From assembly GCA_951406725.2 (NCBI GenBank), contig OX597821.1, positions 64,480,001 to 64,544,000 of the forward strand: a stretch of DNA of 64,000 nt, written 5' to 3'. Below the pieces are notes generated by a model. It did no database searches. It was not told where the DNA came from and was given only the letters and a program-made list of their open reading frames with translations. Numbering within the stretch: position 1 is the stretch's first letter; each line of letters begins with the position of its first letter. Below, in pieces: positions 1,781 to 42,247 of this stretch. A program made the position numbers and the translations under genes. Source of the DNA: Octopus vulgaris. Lineage: Eukaryota.

Positions 1781-2190
1781 AGCGGCGAGTTGGCCGAATC
1801 GAATCGTTAGCAGACCAGGCAAAATGCTTAGCGGTATTTCATGTCTTTACGTTCTGAGTTCACATTCCGCCGAGGTCGACTTTGCCTTTCATCCTTTCGG
1901 GGTCGATAAATTAAGTACCAGTTACGCACAGGGGGTCGATGTAATCGACTTAATACCTATGTCTGTCCTTGTTTGTCCCCTCTGTGTTTAGCCCCTTGTG
2001 GGTAATAAAGAAATAGGTATTTCATCTGTCTTTACGTTCTGAGTTCAAATATCGCCGTGATCGGCTTTGCCTTTGATCTATGCGGGGTTGATAAAATAAA
2101 TAGCATTTGAGCACGGAGGTCATTATAAATGACTATCCACCAACCAAGAACTGGCGGGCCTTGAGAGGAAATTTGAAATCAAAACGTTAA
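1781..2190 (+). mobile_element. SINE family B, two nested units
   Basis: GCGGCGAGTTGGC...GAGTTCACATTCCGCCGAGGTCGACTTTGCCTTTCATCCTTTCGGGGTCGATAAATTAAGTACC...GGGTAATAAAGAAATA|GGTATTTC, followed by an older unit. Confidence 0.9.
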
Positions 2191-8809: not shown

Positions 8810-9240
8810 GGATCTTTTCGGTTTGAACGGCAGTTTTTTCTAGCGGTGTCATATGAAATTGTCACACATAGTTATGACCCTAGTATCGATCTATTGCATT
8901 TCAATCTGTTTTAGAGTTAGGGTTAGTTACGGTTAGGGGTGGGGGGAAGGATATCTTTTTTTTTTCACAAATGTAAATGAACCCAATCTATTTCTTAAAC
9001 GAGGGACATATTCATACGGCACAGAATGTTTTTTTTACCTCAATAGACGTCAGTGATTGGTTGAAATTGCAGAAATTGAAGAAAAAAAAACAACAAATAT
9101 CATACAAACTATAGAATTTTCTCAATAAAGCCAAGAGAAAAAGATGTTTTGTAAACATATTTCTACCAGTATACGAAGTTTAAAATTTTTTAGTTACCTA
9201 GAAATTATGTTAAAAACCGCCGATCAAACCGAAAAGATCC
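8810..9240. mobile_element. Non-autonomous DNA transposon (MITE), 29-bp TIRs, 8-bp TSD
   Basis: TIRs GGATCTTTTCGGTTTGAACGGCAGTTTTT / AAAAACCGCCGATCAAACCGAAAAGATCC; TSD TACCTCTT at 8802-8809 and 9241-9248. Confidence 0.92.
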
Positions 9241-12857: not shown

Positions 12858-14689
12858 TAATAAATGCCAATGTTATTATATCCAAAAAATAAAATACCAT
12901 AAATAAAATACAAAAAATATAATACTATAGATAAATGCAGCTTAAAATATATATCATAAAACACAGTTCCTGGATTACTGCTGTATGTATAAATATAAAA
13001 GTTATTGAGGAAAGTTATTTAAAGGAATGTAAACAAAATTATCAAAGAAGTTCAAAAGTCCAACGTAACATAACAGACATATTTGATACGAAACATAGAA
13101 TGGCTGGAGATAAGTGCTGTTGCGGAAGTTAAAAAATCTTATAAAATATTTTTTAATGATTTTTGAGAAAATACTTGGGATATTTTGAATTCAATATTTG
13201 TTGCATATCAAAGAAGAAAAAGGTGTTTTTAACGAGTGTGATTATTAAGAGTATAATCAACAGAATGCCAAAACGATGGCACGTCAAAAGGGTTTGAAAA
13301 GATAAGTTGTATTAAGATCCAGTAGAATTACGTTAGTAATTTCATTAAAAAATTAACAGTTCAGTGGTAATATATACGTCTGGCGGTAAATAATTGCAAA
13401 GTAAGAATTTCGATGCGTGTCTGTAAGAATTCAGGCATGTTGATGAAATAAATGCTTTCAACAAAATTTTAAAAAAGTCTTTCACACACACATGCACACG
13501 CACGCACAGAGGTAAGTGCAAACATAGATACACATAAGCACAAACTCACAAACACACTCACACGAGCACGTCTGCATACGCACATATGAGTGTTTAATAC
13601 TATATGCATAGCTAAAACCAGGAAATAAGAAGATAACGTGAGATTTTATGAATTCCCTGTATGTTGTGAGAAAAAACTTTGGTAACGGCAATTTCTGTGT
13701 TATAAATATGAGAGACCATACCAATAACCTGAACCTGGCAATTAAAAAGAATTAAGCCGTAATAATGCATTTAGGTAGTGATAAACGTAGATAAAATCTC
13801 ATGTTTACATGTCAGTTGAGATGAAATTTAAAATGTGGTTTGTGTTTACAAGATTATTTATCTTGTATCAGAGGATTTTACACTCGTTCCTGAAATTATC
13901 CGACTTTAACACGGCATTTGATCGACAACAGTTAAACAAAATTTATTTATTTCTGCGTGAATGTTCGATGAAAAAGAATTGTAACTTTATAGGAAGATGA
14001 TGTTAAGTGTTAATCCATTTTCGTATAGTGAGTGAGAAGGGATAAAAATACAAGACCTCCTCCTGGTGGTTTATATTTAAGAATATTAATATATAATACG
14101 GGTGTTTGTTGTGATTGTATCAAAAGTTAATAAGGAAGAGTTTGAGCGAGCGAGACAAATCGTGATTCGTTGGTCCACAAGTGAACGTTGAGTGTCATGC
14201 TCAAGTAAATTTTACAGATTCAAATCAATGGTGAGAAAAATTTATATGTAAATTAAGCATTGTATCTGTTAAAGATTGTCTCAATTGTGAAAAGTTATAT
14301 TGTTGTACTTATTTTTCGTTAAACACCAACAGCTTCAATAATTAATTCTAGAATTGGTGGGCACATAAGATACATAGTTTGCCATATCAACAAATTATAG
14401 ATAAGTCTAATTATTTGGGTTTTTTTTACATAAAAAATAAAGATTTTAAATCATAACGTTGAAGGGAGGAAATAGATCTACAATTAGTAACTATAATACA
14501 AGTTTAAAATAATTTTAGCAAGATAATATTTCTTAAATCTGATAAGCGGAAAACCTGTAGCAAATTGCTAAGCATGTGTAATATATAGTTTCCAGAAATT
14601 TGATAATGAATGCATAAAAATAATAACACACTGCTTTAAATTAATATCCGCGGTCAAATGATTCATAATGGCTTAAATGTTGATTCTTT

Positions 14690-14905
14690 GTAAATTTGGT
14701 TCAAGACTGACAATTTTGAGAGCAGGACAATAGTCTATTACATCGATCCCAGAGCTCAACTGGAACTTATTTCATTGACCCCGTAAGGATGAACAGATTA
14801 AGTCAACCTCGGTGGATTTTGAATCTAGAAAGTAAAATGCCGGAAGAAATGTGCTTCTAAGTAGTTGTCCAGTGTGCAAACGACTTTGCTAACTCGGCAG
14901 CTTAT
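14690..14905 (-). mobile_element. Old SINE family B copy
   Basis: Diverged CATCGATCCCAG...CTTATTTCATTGACCCCGTAAGGATGAA...AAGTCAACCTCGGTGGATTTTGAA. Confidence 0.7.
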
Positions 14906-15344
14906 GGCTGAGAAATTAATAGCTACACCTGAATTGATTACATTTAAACAACTATAATTTAACTTTGAAGATTATCAGAATATTCAGAAGCTGAAAGGAC
15001 GGAACAAATATTGCAAGTCGTTTTAACCGAACACACCAAGTTCGCCAATTCACTATTATAAGAGTAAGGGTTGTTTTATTGACCTGAATATCTTACACTT
15101 CTATAAATTCGCTATAAAATAAGAATAATAGTTTTTATAGACATAAGGTATGATAGTTGCAAGGGAGGTGAATTGCTGATTATATTTGAATTCAGTATTC
15201 TACTGGTAGTTAGATTTTACTAACACCCAAAAAAGAAAGGCAGATGAATACAGTAAAATGTGAACTGAGAGAGTAAAGCGTTGCAAATAAATATTCCACG
15301 GTATTGAGTGCGATGCGCTAACAGTTATATCAATAATTGGAATA

Positions 15345-16455
15345 TTGGTTTCAAATTTTGGCACAGGGTCAGTAATTTCAGAGGAGTAGGTAAGTCGATT
15401 ACATCGAACCCAGCACTCTACTGGTACTTGTTATACCGACCTGTAAGGATAGAAGGCAAAATCGACCTCGGCTTTATTTGAACAGAGACAAACGAAATAC
15501 ACAAACCATTTTGCCTGGCAAGCTAACAATTCTTTTCTACTCTAGGCACAAGGCTGGAAATTTTGGGGGAGGGGGCCAGCCGATTAGATCGACCACAGTA
15601 CGCAACTGGTGCTTAATCTATCGACACCGAAAGGATGAAAGGCAAAGTCGACCTCGTAAAGACACGAAATACCTACTTCTTTACTACTCACAAGGGGCTA
15701 AACACAGAGAGGACAAACAAGGACAGACAAACAGATTAAGTCGATTATATCGACCCCAGTGTGTACCTGGTACTTATTTAATCGACCCCAAAAGATGAAA
15801 GGCAAAGTCGATCTGGGCAGAATTTGAACACAGAACGTAACAGTAGACGAAATACCGCTAAGCATTTGAACTGGTGTGCTAACGGTTCTTATTTCTTTAC
15901 TGCCCACAAGGGGCTACACACAGAGGGGACAACCAAGGATAGACAAACGGATTAAGTCGTTTATATCGACCCCGCCCCCGAAAGGAATTTAATCGACCTC
16001 CGAGGAATTTGAACTCAGAACGTAGAGGCTGACGAAATACCTATTTCTTTACTACCCACAAGGGGCTAAACACAGAGAGGATAAACAAGGACAGACAAAC
16101 GGATTAAGTCGATTATATCGATCTCAGTGCGTAACTGGTACTTATTTAATTGACCGCGAAAGGATGAAAGGCAAAGTCGACCTCGGCGAAATTTGAACTC
16201 AGAACGTAAAGACAGACGAAATACCTATTTCTTTACTACCCACAAGGGGCTAAACACAGAGAGGACAAACAAGGATAGACAAACAGATTAAGTCGATTAT
16301 ATCGACCCCAGTGCGTAACTGTTACTTAATTTATCGACCCCAAAAGGATGAAAGGCAAAGTCGACTCGGTGGAATTTGAACTCAGAACGTAACGGCAGAC
16401 GAAATACCGCTAAGCATTTCGCCCGGCGTGCTAACAATTGTGCGAGCTCACCACC

Positions 16456-16457
<2 letters not shown>
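15345..16457 (-). mobile_element. Six-unit nested array of SINE family B
   Basis: Single head at 16457; junctions at about 16225, 16041, 15889, 15673 and 15530. Confidence 0.9.
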
Positions 16458-16520
<63 letters not shown>

Positions 16521-16534
16521 TATTAATAATAAAA

Positions 16535-16800
16535 GATGGGCTACAGCAAATATTATGCTGAATACCACAAATTTACTTGTCACTTGTTTGTCCATAACCA
16601 GTTGAGCATGTCCCTTAGTGGCTGATGATATGTGCATCTCTGGTCACGAGCAAGAGTAGTGGGGGAGCATCACAGCCGTGTGTTGAAAGAAGTTCTTATA
16701 AATTTGGATAATTCACATGGGTGGTTTGTTCAACATCCTTAAACATTCCTCATTCAGGGACCTTTTGAGCGGGATGGGCTACTCGTCCAGAAGAAAATTC
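16535..16800. mobile_element. Interspersed repeat family E next to (AAT)n
   Basis: Homologous, in opposite orientation, to 28376-28598. Confidence 0.6.
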
Positions 16801-16960
16801 CACAAAAGAACACAACAACGCGAGGACGTGGAACAAATATAGTATTATTGGACGCTCAGGAAGGAAGGAAAGAAGGAGGGCTTAACGTTTCGAGCGGAGC
16901 TCTTCATCGGAAACATAGGAGAAGGAAAGATTCAGAGAAGGGAAGACAGAGGAAAAAAAA
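16800..16960 (-). mobile_element. PLE-type pseudo-LTR fragment with minimal hammerhead-like motif (16878-16915)
   Basis: Minus: CCGATGA A GAGC TCC GCTC GAAA CG TTA; homologue at 24540-24715. Confidence 0.6.
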
Positions 16961-16964
16961 ACGA

Positions 16965-17125
16965 ACTTCTTTCAGTTTCCGCCTACCAAATCCAATCACC
17001 AGGCTTTGGTCGGCCCGAAGCTATAGTAGAAGATGCTTGCCCAATGTGTCATATAGTGGGACTGAACCCGGAATCATGTGGTTGATAAGCAAGCTAATAA
17101 AACACACGGCCAATCCTACGCCGGT
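16965..17125 (-). mobile_element. SINE family A, 5' half
   Basis: Reverse match to family A. Confidence 0.85.
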
Positions 17126-17387
17126 AATGTTTATAAACCAAGTCGATTTAGTTTACATTTTGTTTCAGAAATAACGTAAAAGCTTCACTAGATTATGAAA
17201 ATGACTCACAGCTTGTTATTAATACAACTGCACCGCTACTTTGCAACAGGTCAATGCTGCCACTGCTACTGCTGCTGCTACATCTCTTCCTCTGCCTTCG
17301 CCTCGTAGTCATCGTTATCTGCATGTTTATATTCGTAATAAACATAATCATTACGATCGCCAGCATCATCGTCGTAATCGTCATTAG

Positions 17388-18435
17388 ACAGGATTGGCTG
17401 TGTGGGTTAAGAAGCTCGCTTCGGTTTCTATCCCACTGCGGGGCACCTTCAGCAAACGTCTTCTATAGTCCCAGGTAATCGGTGTATTTGTGTGAGAAGA
17501 ATTTGGGAGACGAAAACTGTGTGTATATCTAACGTGTGTGTGTGTGAATGTGTGTTTGTGTGTGAGCATGTGTGAGTGTCTGTGTTTGTGAATGTGCATG
17601 TGTGTGTGTGTGTGTATGTGCATGTGTTTGTGTGTGTGTATGTGAGAGCGTGTGTTTGTGTGTGTGCGTGTTTGTGAGTGTGTATGTATGTGAGCATGTG
17701 TGTCTGTTGTTTTTTGTGATTGTTTATGTGAGAGTGTGCTTCTGTGTATGTATGTGTATGTGTTTGTGTATGTATGTGAGCATGTGTGTCTGTGTGTGTT
17801 TTTCTGTGTGTGTATATGTATGTGTGTGTATATGTATGTGTGTGTATATAAGCGTGTGTGTTTGTGTGTATGAGTTTGTGAGTGTGTGTATGCGCGTGTG
17901 TCTTTGTGTGTGTGTATGTGAGCGTGTGTATTTGCATGTGTGTGTTTGTGTGTATGTATGTGAGTGTGTGTATTTGTGTGTGTGTTTGTATGTTTGTGTA
18001 TGTTCGTGTGTGTGTGAGTGTGCGTATGTGTCTATGTGTGTGTATGTGTGTGAGTGTGCGTATGTGTGTGTGCATGCATCAGGAAGAACCAGCGTGGCGC
18101 CCAACGTTACGCTGAATCTCCCTGAGAACTACATTAAGGATACGCGTGTCTGTGGAAGGCTCAGCCACTTGCACATTAATTACACGAGCAGACCGTTCTT
18201 TTGATCGAATCAACTGGAACACTCATCGTCGTAACCGACGGAGTGCCACTCTATCTCTGATTAACAACTGGTGTTAGTTTGTTTACGTCTCTATAACTTA
18301 GCGGTTCAGCAAAATGATTGATTAAACAATTACCAAACCTTGAATAAATATAAGTAGGAGGATACTCTTTTTCAGCTAAAAACTTCCATAGAAATGCCCC
18401 AGCATGGGCTGAGTCCAGGAACTGCACCAAGTAAG
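17388..18435 (+). mobile_element. Old family A SINE with ~540-bp (GT)-rich internal expansion and an inserted family D tail (18100-18250)
   Basis: 5' half 17388-17525 and 3' half 18260-18435 match family A; 18100-18250 matches 60995-61133. Confidence 0.75.
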
Positions 18436-19444: not shown

Positions 19445-19479
19445 TTGTCTGTCTGTCTTTCTGCCTATCTCTCGATCTG

Positions 19480-19712
19480 GCGGTGAGCTGGCAGAAACGT
19501 TTAGCTCGCCGGGCGAAATGCGTAGCCGTATTTCGTCTGCCGTTACGTTCTGAGTTCAAATTCCGCCGAGGTCGACTTTGCCTTTCATCCTTTCGGGGTC
19601 GATAAATTAAGTACCAGTTACGCACTGGGGTTGATGTAATCGACTTAATCCGTTTGTCTGTCCTTGTTTGTCCCCTCTGTGTTTAGCCCCTTGTGGGTAA
19701 TAAAGAGATATA
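19480..19712 (+). mobile_element. Single full-length SINE family B (LINE-tail variant) with 14-bp TSD
   Basis: TSD TATCTCTCGATCTG at 19466-19479 and 19713-19726; lies in a (TATC)n/(TGTC)n tract. Confidence 0.92.
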
Positions 19713-28782: not shown

Positions 28783-30113
28783 GATGGCAAGCTATCAGAA
28801 GCTTTACAGCGTCGGACAAAAAAATTTTCGGACGAAAGCGATTCTGCCAGCTCGCCACATTAAACCAAGTAATAATAAGAAGAAAGGCGAAAGAGTTAAA
28901 ATTAAGGAAAAAGAAACGAAGAGAATATGAATTAATGAAGTAAGGCTTAAAAGACCGAAAAGAAATGCGTAACAAAAACAAAAAAAAAAAAAAAAATGAC
29001 AACATGGAAAATGGAAAAAATAAGGAAGCCAATGAAACAGTATTTGATCGAAAGAGAGATGAAGACAGAAAACGGTTTCTCTGATCTTAATTTTTGTTTC
29101 AACTTGGAGAAAGACACACTCCGCCTTTCATTTGCTACCTTTGCTGCCAGCACCAAGCTGGAGATCTGTCAGTTCTGATTGCAATACTGAAATTCAGCAA
29201 TGATGCAGGCTAGGCAATTTAATTAGAGACGACGCTAACTTCTTCCACGCAATTTAGCATTTCAGCAATGTATTTGTTACAATTTCAGACCGTTGAAGAA
29301 TGAAAAATGAAAGTTGAAGTGAAAAACGAAATGAAAGCTGAAAACCGGAGGAAAAAAAACCCCAGCACCAAAAACACCTCACATGACTATAGTTAAATGA
29401 ATTCTAGACACGTTGTTGTTGCGGAGATTACTGTGTATTGATAGTATCACTTATGAAGTAACACATTGCTGTCTGGTATACCATGATATAAATCTATTTT
29501 ATCAAACACATTCACTTACTGTACACCGAACGCCACTTTTTCTTGTGTAGCACTAATTGCAAGTAAATATTGACTGCAAGTACTTGATAAAAGAATGTTG
29601 TATACATATTACACAACTTGGTTCTACATAACTTTGGTTATTATTTCTAGATTGCAATTCTAGTATAAAAGTACATCATAATACTTGAATTGGCGATAAC
29701 ATACAAGTAACATATCTTGTCATTCTTAGTGTATCAAAATACATTCAGTTGAAGAAAAAAATACTTTGTTCTTCAGCTCGAGTTTCTTGTTTACAAAGAA
29801 ACAAAAATACAATGCATCATTATTTTCTCTTTTTCTGATATTCCGTAAATTATAATTATTACAATGACATGCAATTGTATTTAAAGTGAGAAAAATATGT
29901 GCCCTCCCGCACTGAGTATGCTAAATTATATAAAAATATCTTTGCAACGTTATTCCTCTTTTTGCGTTTTGTGGTTATTACAGGCAATTCCGCCAAGCAT
30001 TTGCTAATTACAGTTATTTGAAGGAAAACAAATTGTGCTAAAATATTAATGTATGCTAATTATAACAAGTTTAAAAGAAGGCATTGAGGTGTCAGAACCG
30101 CTATCACGCCGAA

Positions 30114-30520
30114 GGCGGTGAGCTGGCAGACACGTTAGCACGCCGGGAGAAATGCATAGACGTATTTCGTTTGCCGTTACATTCTGAGTTCAAATTCCGC
30201 CGAGGTCGACTTTACCTTTCATCCTTTCGGGGTCGATTAAATAAGTACCAGTTACGCACAGGGGTCGATGTAATCGACTTAATCCCTTTGTCTGTCCTTG
30301 TTTGTCCCTCTATGTTTAGCCCCTTGTGGGCAATAAAGAAATAAGAAACGTTAGCACGCCGGGCGAAATGCTTAGCGGTATTTCGTCTCTCCTTACGTTT
30401 TGAGTTCAAATTCTGCCGAGGTCGACTTTCCCTTTCACCCTTTCAGGGTCGATAAATTAAGTACCAGTTAAGTACTGGGCTCGATCTAATCGACTGCCTT
30501 GTACCTAGCGTAGAAAAGAA
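30114..30520 (+). mobile_element. Two-unit nested SINE family B with decayed 20-bp TSD
   Basis: AGAACCGCTATCACGCCGAA (30094-30113) vs AGAACCATTATCATGCCGAA (30517-30536); junction GGGCAATAAAGAAATA|AGAAACGTTAGC. Confidence 0.9.
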
Positions 30521-30544
30521 CCATTATCATGCCGAATAAAATTC

Positions 30545-30720
30545 TTAGCAGCATTCTTTTTCGTCTTTACGTTCTGAGTTCAAATTCCACCGTGATCAAT
30601 TTTGTCTTCCAATCATTTTGTAGTTGATAAAAGAACAACCAACACCGGTTTCATACCGGCGTTAATGTAATCGACTTAGCCCCCCACCCAAATTGCTGGC
30701 TCTTTGACAACAGTTGAAAT
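30545..30720 (+). mobile_element. Old SINE family B copy
   Basis: CGTCTTTACGTTCTGAGTTCAAATTCCACCG...ATGTAATCGACTTAGCCCC. Confidence 0.7.
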
Positions 30721-36973: not shown

Positions 36974-37020
36974 ACATTAGCAACAACTACAGCAACAGCA
37001 GCAGAAATAGAATCAATATT

Positions 37021-37612
37021 CTTTTCTACCCTAGGCACAAGGCCCAAAACTTCTGCGGAAGGTCAGTCGATTAGATCAATTCCAGTACACAACTGGTACA
37101 TAATTTATCTACCCCGAAAGGATGAAGGCAATGTCGACCTTGGTGGAATTTGAACTCAGATCGTAAAGACAGACGAAATACCTATTTCTTTACTACCCAC
37201 AAGGGGCTAAACACAGAGATGACAAACAAGGACGGACAAAAGGATTAAGTCGATTATATCGATCCTAGTGCGTAACTGGTACTTATTTAATCGACCCCGA
37301 AAGGATGAAAGGCAAAGTCGATCTCGGCGGAACGGGAACTCAGAACGTAGCGGCAGACGAAATACCTATTTCTTTACTACCCACAAGGGGCTAAACAAAG
37401 AGAGGACAAACAAGGAGAGACGAATGGATTAAGTCGATTACGTCAACCCCAGTGAGTAACTGGTACTTAATTTACCGAGCTCGAAAGGATGAAAGGCGAA
37501 GTCGACCTCGGCGGAATTTGAACTCAGAACGTAACCGCAGATGAAATACGTCTATGCATTTCGCCCGGCGTGCTAACGCCTCTACCAGCTCGCCCTGCGA
37601 GCTCGCCGCCTT
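37021..37612 (-). mobile_element. Three-unit nested SINE family B with perfect 18-bp TSD
   Basis: AGAAATAGAATCAATATT at 37003-37020 and 37613-37630. Confidence 0.93.
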
Positions 37613-39170
37613 AGAAATAGAATCAATATTGTTATGCCAACTTTGTGGGAACCCCTACGTAGTCGCTTCCTCCTTCATATAAAAAACCCCAGCCAAATTT
37701 GACTCAAATTGCTCCTTACCATCTAAAACAAAAATATTGCACATGGCTTACTGTAGTCCTAAATAGATATATACCTGGGATTATATATTCTCCATTTCGG
37801 CCTCGACCAAACTTGCAAATGGCTTTTGGTCAAATGTTATATGGAACCAACTAAAGTAAATACCAGCAATATCCAAACAAGACATTATCAATAGCATTAA
37901 ATGTAAATTCCCTTCAAGGGCAGCGGCCCAAAGAACGGTGTGGTGGACTATGTATAGAGAAGCAGATTAAAGCTCAATATGTATATATTCAGTGATAAAA
38001 CAGTTACTCTCACCTGGTAAACTGGGCAATGATTGTGTGAAAATTGAGTAAAATTTAAAATAAGCAAATTTAATAGGTTATAAGAGCCGGTTACTTCTTA
38101 CAACATGTTACATGTTGAAACATCAGTGTCTCAGAGTGTCGTGTGCTAATGAAATGGATATGTTGAACACACTATTATCGTAATGAGAAGAAGTTATTCT
38201 CCTAAGACAAACACTGCAGCGCCCAGCATATTTTGCCTCTGGACCTGCCTGAACGTTTAAGAATAAATATACAAATATTCGTTCTAGTCATAAGAGTCTC
38301 TTGCAGAGAAGCCAACGTTGAGCCATACATTGAGCAGGTAGAGATATGTAGCACTAGGTTATAGATTCAACTGTAACAAATCATGTTGTTCCCTGGCAGC
38401 CTTATTGCTTTACCGATTTTAGAGGGATTGAATGGATGGAGTCCTATCCTCTGCGATAATATCATTTAAACCACATCATATACGTAAACGCAGGAACGCA
38501 ATTTGGTTGGGAGTGTGAGCAAACCCAATTTTTCAGAAACAGTTTTCAAAACATTTTCATTGTCCTCTCCAACGCCAAAATTTAATGGTATGCGCTTGCA
38601 CGTCTTGTTTCCGAGTCTATGATCAAACATATACTTCTTATAATAATAATAATAATATTTTACATTAGAAAAAGACGACAAATTCATAGGACTAGTGGAT
38701 GTGGAACAAGTGCAAACGTAAAATCGAAACCGGTTCGATTTGAACTAGAACAGTAGATATATCGTAGTTATATAGTGAAACATGTTTATTCCGCTGCTTT
38801 ACATATCCTACCTCTTAACGGTCTTAAAAGCAATGATGTATTTCATAGGCGCCATAAATTAGTGTCTTTGTTTTTCAGACAGAGGCGTAGTCATTTAAAT
38901 CAATCTCAGCATCGGATCCCAGAGGGAAAACATAAAAATGAACCCCCAGTGGGATTTGAACTCATTACGTAAACAAATGAAACTGAATACTTTAAAGTCG
39001 TATAGTTCATTGTATTTTCATGTATATCTTATTAACCATTTCCAAATAATATATTATATAAGACACTGGAATATTTACAACTCAAAAATATTGATCTGAG
39101 CAGATGTTTAGAATTCTTTTCACAAGACATTTAAGTTAATAATTTTACACTCATTATTGTGCTTATTTTA

Positions 39171-39395
39171 AGGCGACGAGCTGGCAGAAGCGTTAGCACA
39201 CTGGGCGAAATACTAAACGATTTTTTTTGTCTGCCGTTACGTTCTGAGTTCAAATTCCGCCGAGGTCGACTTTGCTTTTCATCCATCCATTCAGGGTCGC
39301 TAAATTAAGTACCAATTGCATATTGGAGTCGATCTAATCGACTACCCCCGCTTCCCCAAAGTTTCGGGCCTTGTACCTAGAGCAGAAAAGAATTA
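39171..39395 (+). mobile_element. Monomeric SINE family B (AGAAAAGAAT tail variant)
   Basis: Full head and body; ends GGGCCTTGTACCTAGAGCAGAAAAGAAT. Confidence 0.9.
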
Positions 39396-41400: not shown

Positions 41401-41628
41401 GGCGAGCTTGGCAGAAACGTTAGCACGCCGGGCGAAATGCTTAGCGGTATTTCGTCTGCGTTACGTTGTGAGTTCAAATTCCGCCGAGGTCGACTTTGCC
41501 TTTCATCCTTTTGGGGTCGATAAATTAAGTACCAGTTACGCACTGGGGTCGATGTAATCGACTTAATACCTATGTCTGTCCTTGTTTGTCCGCTCTGTGT
41601 TTAGCCTCTTGTGGGTAATAAAGAAATA
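41401..41628 (+). mobile_element. SINE family B (LINE-tail variant), full length
   Basis: Head GGCGAGCTTGGCAGAAACG through GGGTAATAAAGAAATA. Confidence 0.92.
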
Positions 41629-42247
41629 GGTTAGCCTCTAAGAAATAATAACCAAGTCTCCTCATCCCACTTCCTATTAAAACGAAAGAAAACAAAAAAG
41701 CACATTATATACCCAAGACGAAACCAGAATGGAACGGCTTTGTTTATTTTAATTTGTAATGTTACCCGACCAAGGGTTAAATAACAAGAAAATATCATGT
41801 TACAAAAGCAGTAACTCATACAGAGATCTCTATGGGGGTATACTCAGACATATATGCGTCATTTATTCAAATGACTACAGAATCATAAATTAAAAGATAT
41901 TTCACACTCAAATGTTTCGTTGCACTAATGAATAATTGTTATAAAAATAATTATTTCTTTCCTCAGGGCAAAGTAATATTTGTTCTGGAATCGATGGAGT
42001 GAATTGAATCGATTCCAATATAAAGAAAATGTATTATCAAGTGGGAAGTATAAAGCATAATTGACCAAAGTGAGATTAATTTCAGAACATATTTATTAAT
42101 GCAAAATCATACAAACGTTTTCTAATATCCTATAATAAATCCTTATAAAACTGTAGGTCACCAACTATGTATTAACATTTGAATAACATACTCTACTACG
42201 CTACAGTATAACACATGCATAGATGCGCACATACATAATACATAGAT

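Follow-up and report, generated by a model that had tools for sequence, protein, structure and literature searches.

How does a SINE come to stand six times in a row behind a single head? The question is raised by a 64,000-nucleotide stretch of the Octopus vulgaris genome, called the window throughout, in which a six-unit, one-headed SINE array occupies positions 15345..16457 of the minus strand. The initial annotation of the window proposed that the element inserts by retrotransposition at two fixed sites in the head region of existing copies of its own family, and that a seamless homologous join at the 5' end turns successive insertions into a polarised, time-ordered array. Nested insertion into the element's own head is real and occurs on a large scale, largely as had been proposed; the polarity of the arrays is observed as well, and a strict time order is not. 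Our reading, to which we give a probability of roughly 0.68, is that a SINE with a tRNA-like head inserts, with duplications of 11-20 bp, at two fixed head positions of family copies, that it is likely copied by a LINE, and that it is likely steered by its own RNA.

The SINE consensus, built from 184 full units, is 234 nt long and consists of a head, a body and a tail. The LINE-type tail, here called the L tail, ends AAAGAAATA and occurs as a T and a C variant, and relatives of the element carry the alternative tails A1, A2 and A3 on the same head and body. Along the consensus, site 1 falls at position 18 and site 2 at position 51, which gives periods of 217 and 184 bp, respectively, in arrays. 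Bodies were matched 107 times in 600 kb of unselected DNA, or about 500,000 times per genome (2.8 Gb, 227 contigs); the element is short, non-coding, interspersed and present in very high copy number, and is a SINE. Target-site duplications, with a median of 16 bp, flank 34 of 51 L monomers that have a head. The head is taken to be tRNA-like from A- and B-box-like motifs picked by eye against the usual box consensus. Neither ARAGORN nor Rfam matched the head, and such silence is usual for SINE heads. The folding of the monomer RNA is unremarkable overall (z = -1.35), and site 2 falls within a long head hairpin. A head variant without the GG of site 2 is mostly paired with TA-type tail ends (monomers in L001-L030; window 19479-19710) and is rarer in arrays (20 of 146 heads) than among unselected monomers (10 of 32), possibly as an escape from targeting. 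The label "Meta domain" for the body was dropped, the body motifs being absent from the accessible part of the MetaSINE supplement.

In the main array, unit 1 (16226..16457) has the tRNA-like head, the body and an L tail of the T variant, which runs directly into site 2. Unit 2 (16042..16225) starts at site 2, spans 184 bp and again ends in a T tail, and unit 3 (15890..16041) starts at site 2, has an internal deletion and carries a C tail that is followed by site 1. Unit 4 (15674..15889) starts at site 1 and has a T tail, and unit 5 (15534..15673) starts at site 2, has lost 21 bp and ends in an A1 tail, the end of which overlaps site 1 of the next unit. Unit 6 (15345..15533), from site 1 and with an A2 tail, is the most diverged, with 72% identity to a young unit, and was probably the original host of the array; all six lie on the minus strand. 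The first five units are 78-90% alike mutually and 88-96% identical to the consensus. Because they are closer to the consensus than to each other, this array is not a local duplication, the mark of which would have been greater similarity among its own units. Beyond a (TAA)n tract, other high-copy repeats adjoin the head side of the array (window 16530-17190, from read depth). Contigs from seven distinct public runs, covering window 14000-17400 and 1560-2620, end within the repeat and bridge nothing.

Three further arrays were reported in the window. A two-unit array on the plus strand (1781..2134) has a host-like head, a young L body with its tail, which reach to 2015, and an old A2-like remainder from site 2 (2016) onwards. 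A three-unit array on the minus strand (37021..37612; L, L, A1) has site-2 junctions at 37366 and 37182, and an 18-bp duplication (37003..37020 and 37613-37630) surrounds it entirely. The inserted pair at 30114..30516 on the plus strand consists of an L unit with a C tail, ending at 30343, and an A1 unit that starts from site 1 at 30344, and has in turn entered an older copy at its site 1: it is preceded on the same strand by an old host head remnant upstream of site 1 (30080..30093) and by a left target-site duplication that starts at the old host's site 1 (30094..30113), and is followed by the right duplication (30517-30536; 20 bp, three mismatches) with the remainder of the old host (30517..30720). 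Free monomers, all on the plus strand, include one with an L tail and a 14-bp target-site duplication (19479..19710), one with an L tail followed by GGT and then unique DNA (41401..41630), and one with an A1 tail, the unoccupied host type (39168..39395).

The four arrays and nine junctions initially described are all present. The site-2 unit starts at 2016, 15673, 16041, 16225, 37182 and 37366 stand, as do the site-1 starts at 15889 and 30344; the start given as 15530 is corrected to about 15533 and follows an A1 tail rather than an L tail, and the array at 30114, described as one-headed, has an older head remnant and an older unit behind it. As had been stated, both of the GGGCA tails run into site 1 and all six of the G(G/A)GTA tails into site 2. 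Every array closes with a unit whose tail is of an alternative type (A1 or A2). The window's own arrays show no excess similarity between units.

Insertion of a full-length copy into the head of an existing one, without annealing, is expected to leave, in series, the host head, a duplication, a new head, a tail, the duplication again and the host remainder. Genome-wide, a second full head follows site 2 at 259 places and site 1 at 50, and an equally long B-box control word at 7. Among 30 of the 259 site-2 matches (two from one locus), 25 have a duplication of 11-20 bp starting at the site, and non-consensus letters are common to both copies of the duplication in 15 of 16 informative cases. The inserted tails in these 25 proven insertions are 24 T and one C, and ten of the insertions hit a junction that was already there instead of a head. 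Among 28 of the 50 site-1 matches, 11 have such a duplication starting at the site, with the same non-consensus letters in both copies in 10 of 11 informative cases and with nine C tails and two T tails; the remaining 17 include small tandem head repeats and unresolved cases. The two-head cases and their target-site duplications bear out the proposed sequence-specific insertion into existing copies: the SINE is nested at two fixed sites of its own head. Most junctions would be attributable to such insertion, with the two-head signature itself present in only 7 of 240 sampled heads (eight rows, of which two are the same locus and one is false, and one further case found by eye). Two-head joins were considered as commoner with diverged hosts, which is unsupported (1 of 14 versus 1 of 128, p = 0.19, from a script that missed several known cases). 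Two-head structures also appear to give rise to short tandem repeats of head sequence, with unit lengths of about 72, 28, 27 and 65 bp (C6:27514188-27514662, C30:10202914-10203085, C1:163187384-163187495 in L263-L266, and L238).

Exact L tails number 106,845 genome-wide, of which 32,812 run into site 2 and 2,066 into site 1, whereas a reversed-pattern control for exact tail-plus-site junctions gave 0 genome-wide; the site-2 junctions are far in excess of chance. In unselected DNA (60 stretches of 10 kb), site 2 follows in register after 14 of 46 tails and with small indels after four more, all 18 being of the T variant, and site 1 follows none of the 46. A target-specific LINE is defined in the accessible part of PMC4494074 by more than 20% of copies being flanked by one target, and the SINE exceeds this share (31% of exact tails and 18 of 46 unselected ones, both counts including local duplicates). 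In a junction-enriched sample of 405 tails, 276 continue into family sequence, which begins at position 51 in 173 cases and at position 18 in 79. There the T tail precedes site 2 in 148 cases and site 1 in 9, and the C tail precedes site 1 in 67 and site 2 in 16; among the 100 matches listed per site, 91 at site 2 are T and 86 at site 1 are C. The reported link between tail variant and site is therefore strong genome-wide, but not absolute. A1-tailed copies also join site 1, the tail end overlapping the first letters of the site (L232; window 15533).

We sought whether the arrays are ordered in a sample of 176 multi-unit arrays, from which those within 330 bp of a locus end had been dropped; the loci are mostly from contig 1 and were chosen by exact junctions, which favours young tails. 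The last tail is of an A type in 102 arrays, an intact L tail in 41 and degraded or unclear in 33. Over the same columns, A1 last units are 8.5% diverged and the L units upstream of them 4.5%, a contrast that unrecognised A1 subfamilies could inflate, and of 77 arrays, 63 have an older downstream A1 host and 10 a younger one (p = 2e-11, units more than 20% diverged dropped). The expectation that the downstream unit is the most diverged or carries an alternative tail is thus supported. The accompanying expectation of a divergence gradient fails between first and second units, which are equally diverged (4.0 versus 4.1%, n = 67), so that there is no time order inside the arrays; the ten insertions at internal junctions likewise tell against one. 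The arrays are polarised but not time-ordered. The divergence correlation of neighbouring units is powerless to distinguish co-insertion from nesting, as even the halves of one unit correlate only at 0.11-0.12. Mismatches within the duplications that surround whole arrays amount to 5.9%, 4.9% and 3.4%, values that do not clearly separate the classes. Inverted pairs of head-less L units also occur back to back (L134, L148, C1:3829526-3829676) and are possibly products of twin priming or fold-back.

Most junctions have one head, and the seamless join may come from cDNA annealed to a homologous overhang, which fits the annealing-type 5' joins described for LINEs in the accessible part of PMC4245944. 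The heads of site-2 dimers are more diverged with old hosts (61/594) than with young hosts (34/588, p = 0.005), the body being young. Host alleles are found in the upstream unit within 35 bp of site 2 in 15 of 77 instances (5.1 expected) and within 55 bp of site 1 in 22 of 133 (9.0 expected), and three A-diagnostic columns far downstream were almost never carried into it. Even beside the site, carry-over reaches only about 10-27%, below what simple duplication plus annealing predicts. The partial carry-over and the many young heads imply that the host head is often replaced, or that some junctions arise otherwise. The homologous join originally put forward thus gains from the excess of host alleles near the sites and from the older heads with old hosts, and it falls short in the extent of carry-over. 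At L061 (minus strand, near 8979), an L copy has been inserted some 35 bp ahead of an older SINE. Its long duplication stops precisely at the head of the older element, which suggests a homology-guided 5' join.

Both target words are preferred in unique DNA as well. Among 29 monomers with a duplication, 9 have GGTA directly behind the tail, and in two of these the target does not contain the first G; the L061 copy has GGT outside its duplication. The terminal tail variant tracks the letters that follow it (p = 0.002). Family sites account for 28 of 892 GGTAT words (3%) and 28 of 146 GGTATTT words (19%) in the unselected 600 kb, yet of 48,554 tails followed by GGTAT, 32,812 continue into TTC (68%, local duplicates included); short pairing over 5 or 7 bases is therefore not the whole account. 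Longer read-through pairing, easier completion at homologous targets, and open chromatin at Pol III heads could add to it. The 3' end of the SINE RNA probably steers the choice of site, in line with the 3'-pairing model in the accessible part of PMC6007223.

A candidate partner was recognised at L200, where a LINE with an internal deletion occupies site 1 in the head of a SINE. The family of this LINE has an ORF1 with a zinc knuckle (zf-CCHC), RVT_1 and zf-RVT, with human L1 ORF2 as the closest solved relative, and its predicted protein layout is of the L1/Tx1 type. The LINE with RVT_1 and the SINE have about 45 tail bases in common, and on this ground an L1/Tx1-type LINE likely mobilises the SINE; for the T variant, the same partner is assumed. 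Among the best 30 LINE copies, 29 have the tail, of which two are at site 1 and none at site 2, eight are followed by AGAA (the two at site 1 included) and none by GGTA. The best 30 copies thus leave this family below the share of 20% at one target taken from PMC4494074. Since the sampled LINE is without the GGTA preference, we place that preference in the SINE RNA. A search for LINE-type tails at site 2 likewise returned no LINE among 30 and mostly mutated SINE tails.

Several other LINE-derived elements were observed. Internal deletions that join the beginning of ORF2 to its end were met repeatedly, in LINE copies at different loci (L200:3371-5585 on the minus strand, L363 and L359), of which two are at site 1. 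Elements with the shared tail that have ORF1 only and a repetitive, AT-rich 3' region (L411:1-1530, plus strand; L413, minus strand) both lie at site 1 of an A1-type SINE. Single copies of more distant L1/Tx1-type LINEs have an A1-like tail (L342:4830-4880, plus strand) or an L-like tail (L344:7505-7590, minus strand), which suggests that each SINE tail type comes from a separate LINE subfamily. An RTE partner was rejected, the 30 best reverse transcriptase matches in the genome being without the L tail; these matches are presumably CR1/L2- and RTE-like. The reverse transcriptase matches are dominated by a young and very abundant LINE family (L288-L317) that has an open frame of 949 aa and an (ATT)n tail and lacks the tail of the SINE.

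A LINE endonuclease with sequence specificity, rather than the SINE RNA, might instead set the target, as has been proposed for Tx1-Mar and SINEU, with separate LINE subfamilies serving site 1 and site 2. The LINE-derived elements with the shared tail at site 1 (L200, L363, L411 and L413) would follow directly from this, the shortfall of short pairing at site 2 would be explained, and target choice is put down mainly to the endonuclease in the accessible part of PMC4494074. Yet the best 30 copies of the one LINE family sampled are mostly at neither site, the choice of site tracks a one-base tail variant and the letters behind it, and some G letters after the tail are absent from the target, all of which makes an endonuclease account rather unlikely next to steering by the SINE RNA. 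Less likely again, and improbable in our judgement, is an origin of most seamless junctions in one event, by a microhomology jump of the reverse transcriptase from site 1 or 2 of one SINE RNA to the 3' end of another or by whole insertion of a multimeric read-through RNA. Duplications do flank entire arrays in 28 of 67 A1-ended arrays with a detectable head, first-unit heads often look young, and the modest carry-over of host alleles would need no further explanation. A single event, however, does not account for A1 last units with about twice the divergence of the unit upstream, and the two-head cases show that the cuts in genomic copies fall exactly at sites 1 and 2. A multimeric master is further disfavoured because among 82 A1 last units no pair is more than 94% identical, and none of 3,063 dimer pairs is near-identical in both halves; the recurring identical multimers named at the outset as its mark were not seen among the 82 A1-ended arrays.

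Sequential insertion is nevertheless not the sole cause of the arrays. Adjacent L-L pairs exceed the 95th percentile of random pairs in 54 of 146 cases overall, namely 5 of 27 in dimers, 13 of 55 in three-unit and 7 of 21 in four-unit arrays, and 16 of 28, 4 of 4 and 9 of 11 in arrays of five, six and seven units (29 of 43 for five to seven). Private variants, and even private junction letters, recur along long arrays (L007, L020, L146, L149, L150, L168). This excess similarity and the repeated private variants indicate that local duplication, by unequal exchange or re-insertion of a local transcript, adds to arrays, mainly long ones. Such homogeneity might invite the view, to which we give hardly any weight, that the arrays are satellites derived from the SINE and that DNA-level duplication or unequal exchange alone built them, starting with one or two ancestral junctions. 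The halves of dimers are on average no more alike than random pairs (0.887 versus 0.886, n = 27), 102 of 176 arrays end in an A-type tail unlike the tail upstream, the window's arrays lack excess similarity, and two-head cases with host-specific duplications are beyond the reach of duplication. Pure DNA-level duplication is refuted as the sole cause, and stays as a secondary process.

Under nested insertion steered by the SINE RNA, the proposed steps are as follows. C tails, which end in AGAA-like letters, go mostly to site 1 and T tails, which end in GGTAT-like letters, mostly to site 2, as the junction counts show, with the 3' letters of the RNA likely pairing with the nicked site. An ancestral copy at site 2 may have been transcribed through its tail into the host remainder, by which the RNA would have gained the GGTAT target. 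Direct 5' joining leaves two heads, as seen in a few percent of cases; otherwise, cDNA homologous to the overhang would anneal in register and produce a seamless one-headed dimer with a period of 184 or 217 bp, the head being kept from the host in some dimers and presumably replaced in others. Each insertion leaves two usable sites, at the head and at the junction, and the arrays are thus polarised without being time-ordered. Longer arrays grow further by local duplication, to which their shared private variants point. We tentatively extend this, at somewhat less than even confidence, to a self-reinforcing, RNA-guided homing, in which a 3' extension copied from the target guides a LINE enzyme of low specificity back to that target and the cDNA seals the join. 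The sealed join could overwrite the promoter region of the host, and every landing would give a new source element with its guide, as well as a new landing site.

With about one third of the SINE's LINE-type tails lying at one nucleotide of its own family, a sizeable share of the repeats of a 2.8-Gb genome is shaped in this way. The junctions amount to tens of thousands of natural experiments on TPRT, in which the RNA 3' end can be set against the endonuclease as the picker of the site, and on 5' joining when the cDNA is homologous to the target. They also call for caution, as insert, host and duplicated units are lumped together when these SINEs are dated or counted by divergence from a consensus. 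A SINE that targets its own head was not found described in the open full-text literature searched, including the accessible parts of PMC4758252, PMC4824008, PMC5804259, PMC3747384 and PMC3531059; an earlier mention elsewhere is possible.

The closest known systems are compared here as far as the respective sources are accessible. In crocodilians, SINEU-3 and Tx1-Mar LINEs stack in tandem at an unrelated Mariner target (PMC4494074). As there, the octopus SINE prefers a position inside another repeat, its likely partner is of Tx1 type and shares a target with it, and tandem copies arise by sequential insertion around the target-site duplication. Unlike SINEU-3, which hits Mariner and leaves a duplication between tandem copies, the octopus SINE hits its own head and its joins are mostly seamless and one-headed; it also uses two sites, which go with two different tail ends, and the site bias of the sampled LINE is weak. 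In RTE-related SINEs, near-identical copies with other terminal letters have other target starts (PMC6007223), and site choice follows the 3' terminal letters as it does in octopus. These SINEs match one or two bases of a microsatellite tail, whereas about 4-7 bases of the octopus SINE equal the site in its own head, and its partner appears to be of L1/Tx1 type rather than RTE. The Dip, B2 and Ves SINEs of jerboa, mouse and bat form head-to-tail full-length multimers, the origin of which is left undecided (PMC8466645); a large share of copies is in multimers, with up to eight units there, as in octopus, but the octopus units are cut at fixed internal head positions.

The SINE-derived satellites of squamates (sSat3Gja1, sSat3Ati2) are built of tandem units that do not reach the length of the SINE, led by a longer one, and their homogeneity rises with array length (PMC10702118); in all of this the octopus arrays resemble them. 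The octopus arrays have the tandem partial-SINE units and the extended leading or trailing unit of such satellites, and lack their four or more homogeneous middle units, the four middle units of the 15345 array being heterogeneous; six or more units are found in 3 of 176 sampled arrays. How squamate satellites are seeded is left open in the accessible part of that source, with unequal recombination and same-locus insertion mentioned. In octopus, by contrast, target-site duplications demonstrate seeding by insertion, the arrays are dispersed, with 2-7 units in the sample, and the unit ends are fixed at two positions. Nested SINE insertion thus offers a traceable seeding step for SINE-derived satellites.
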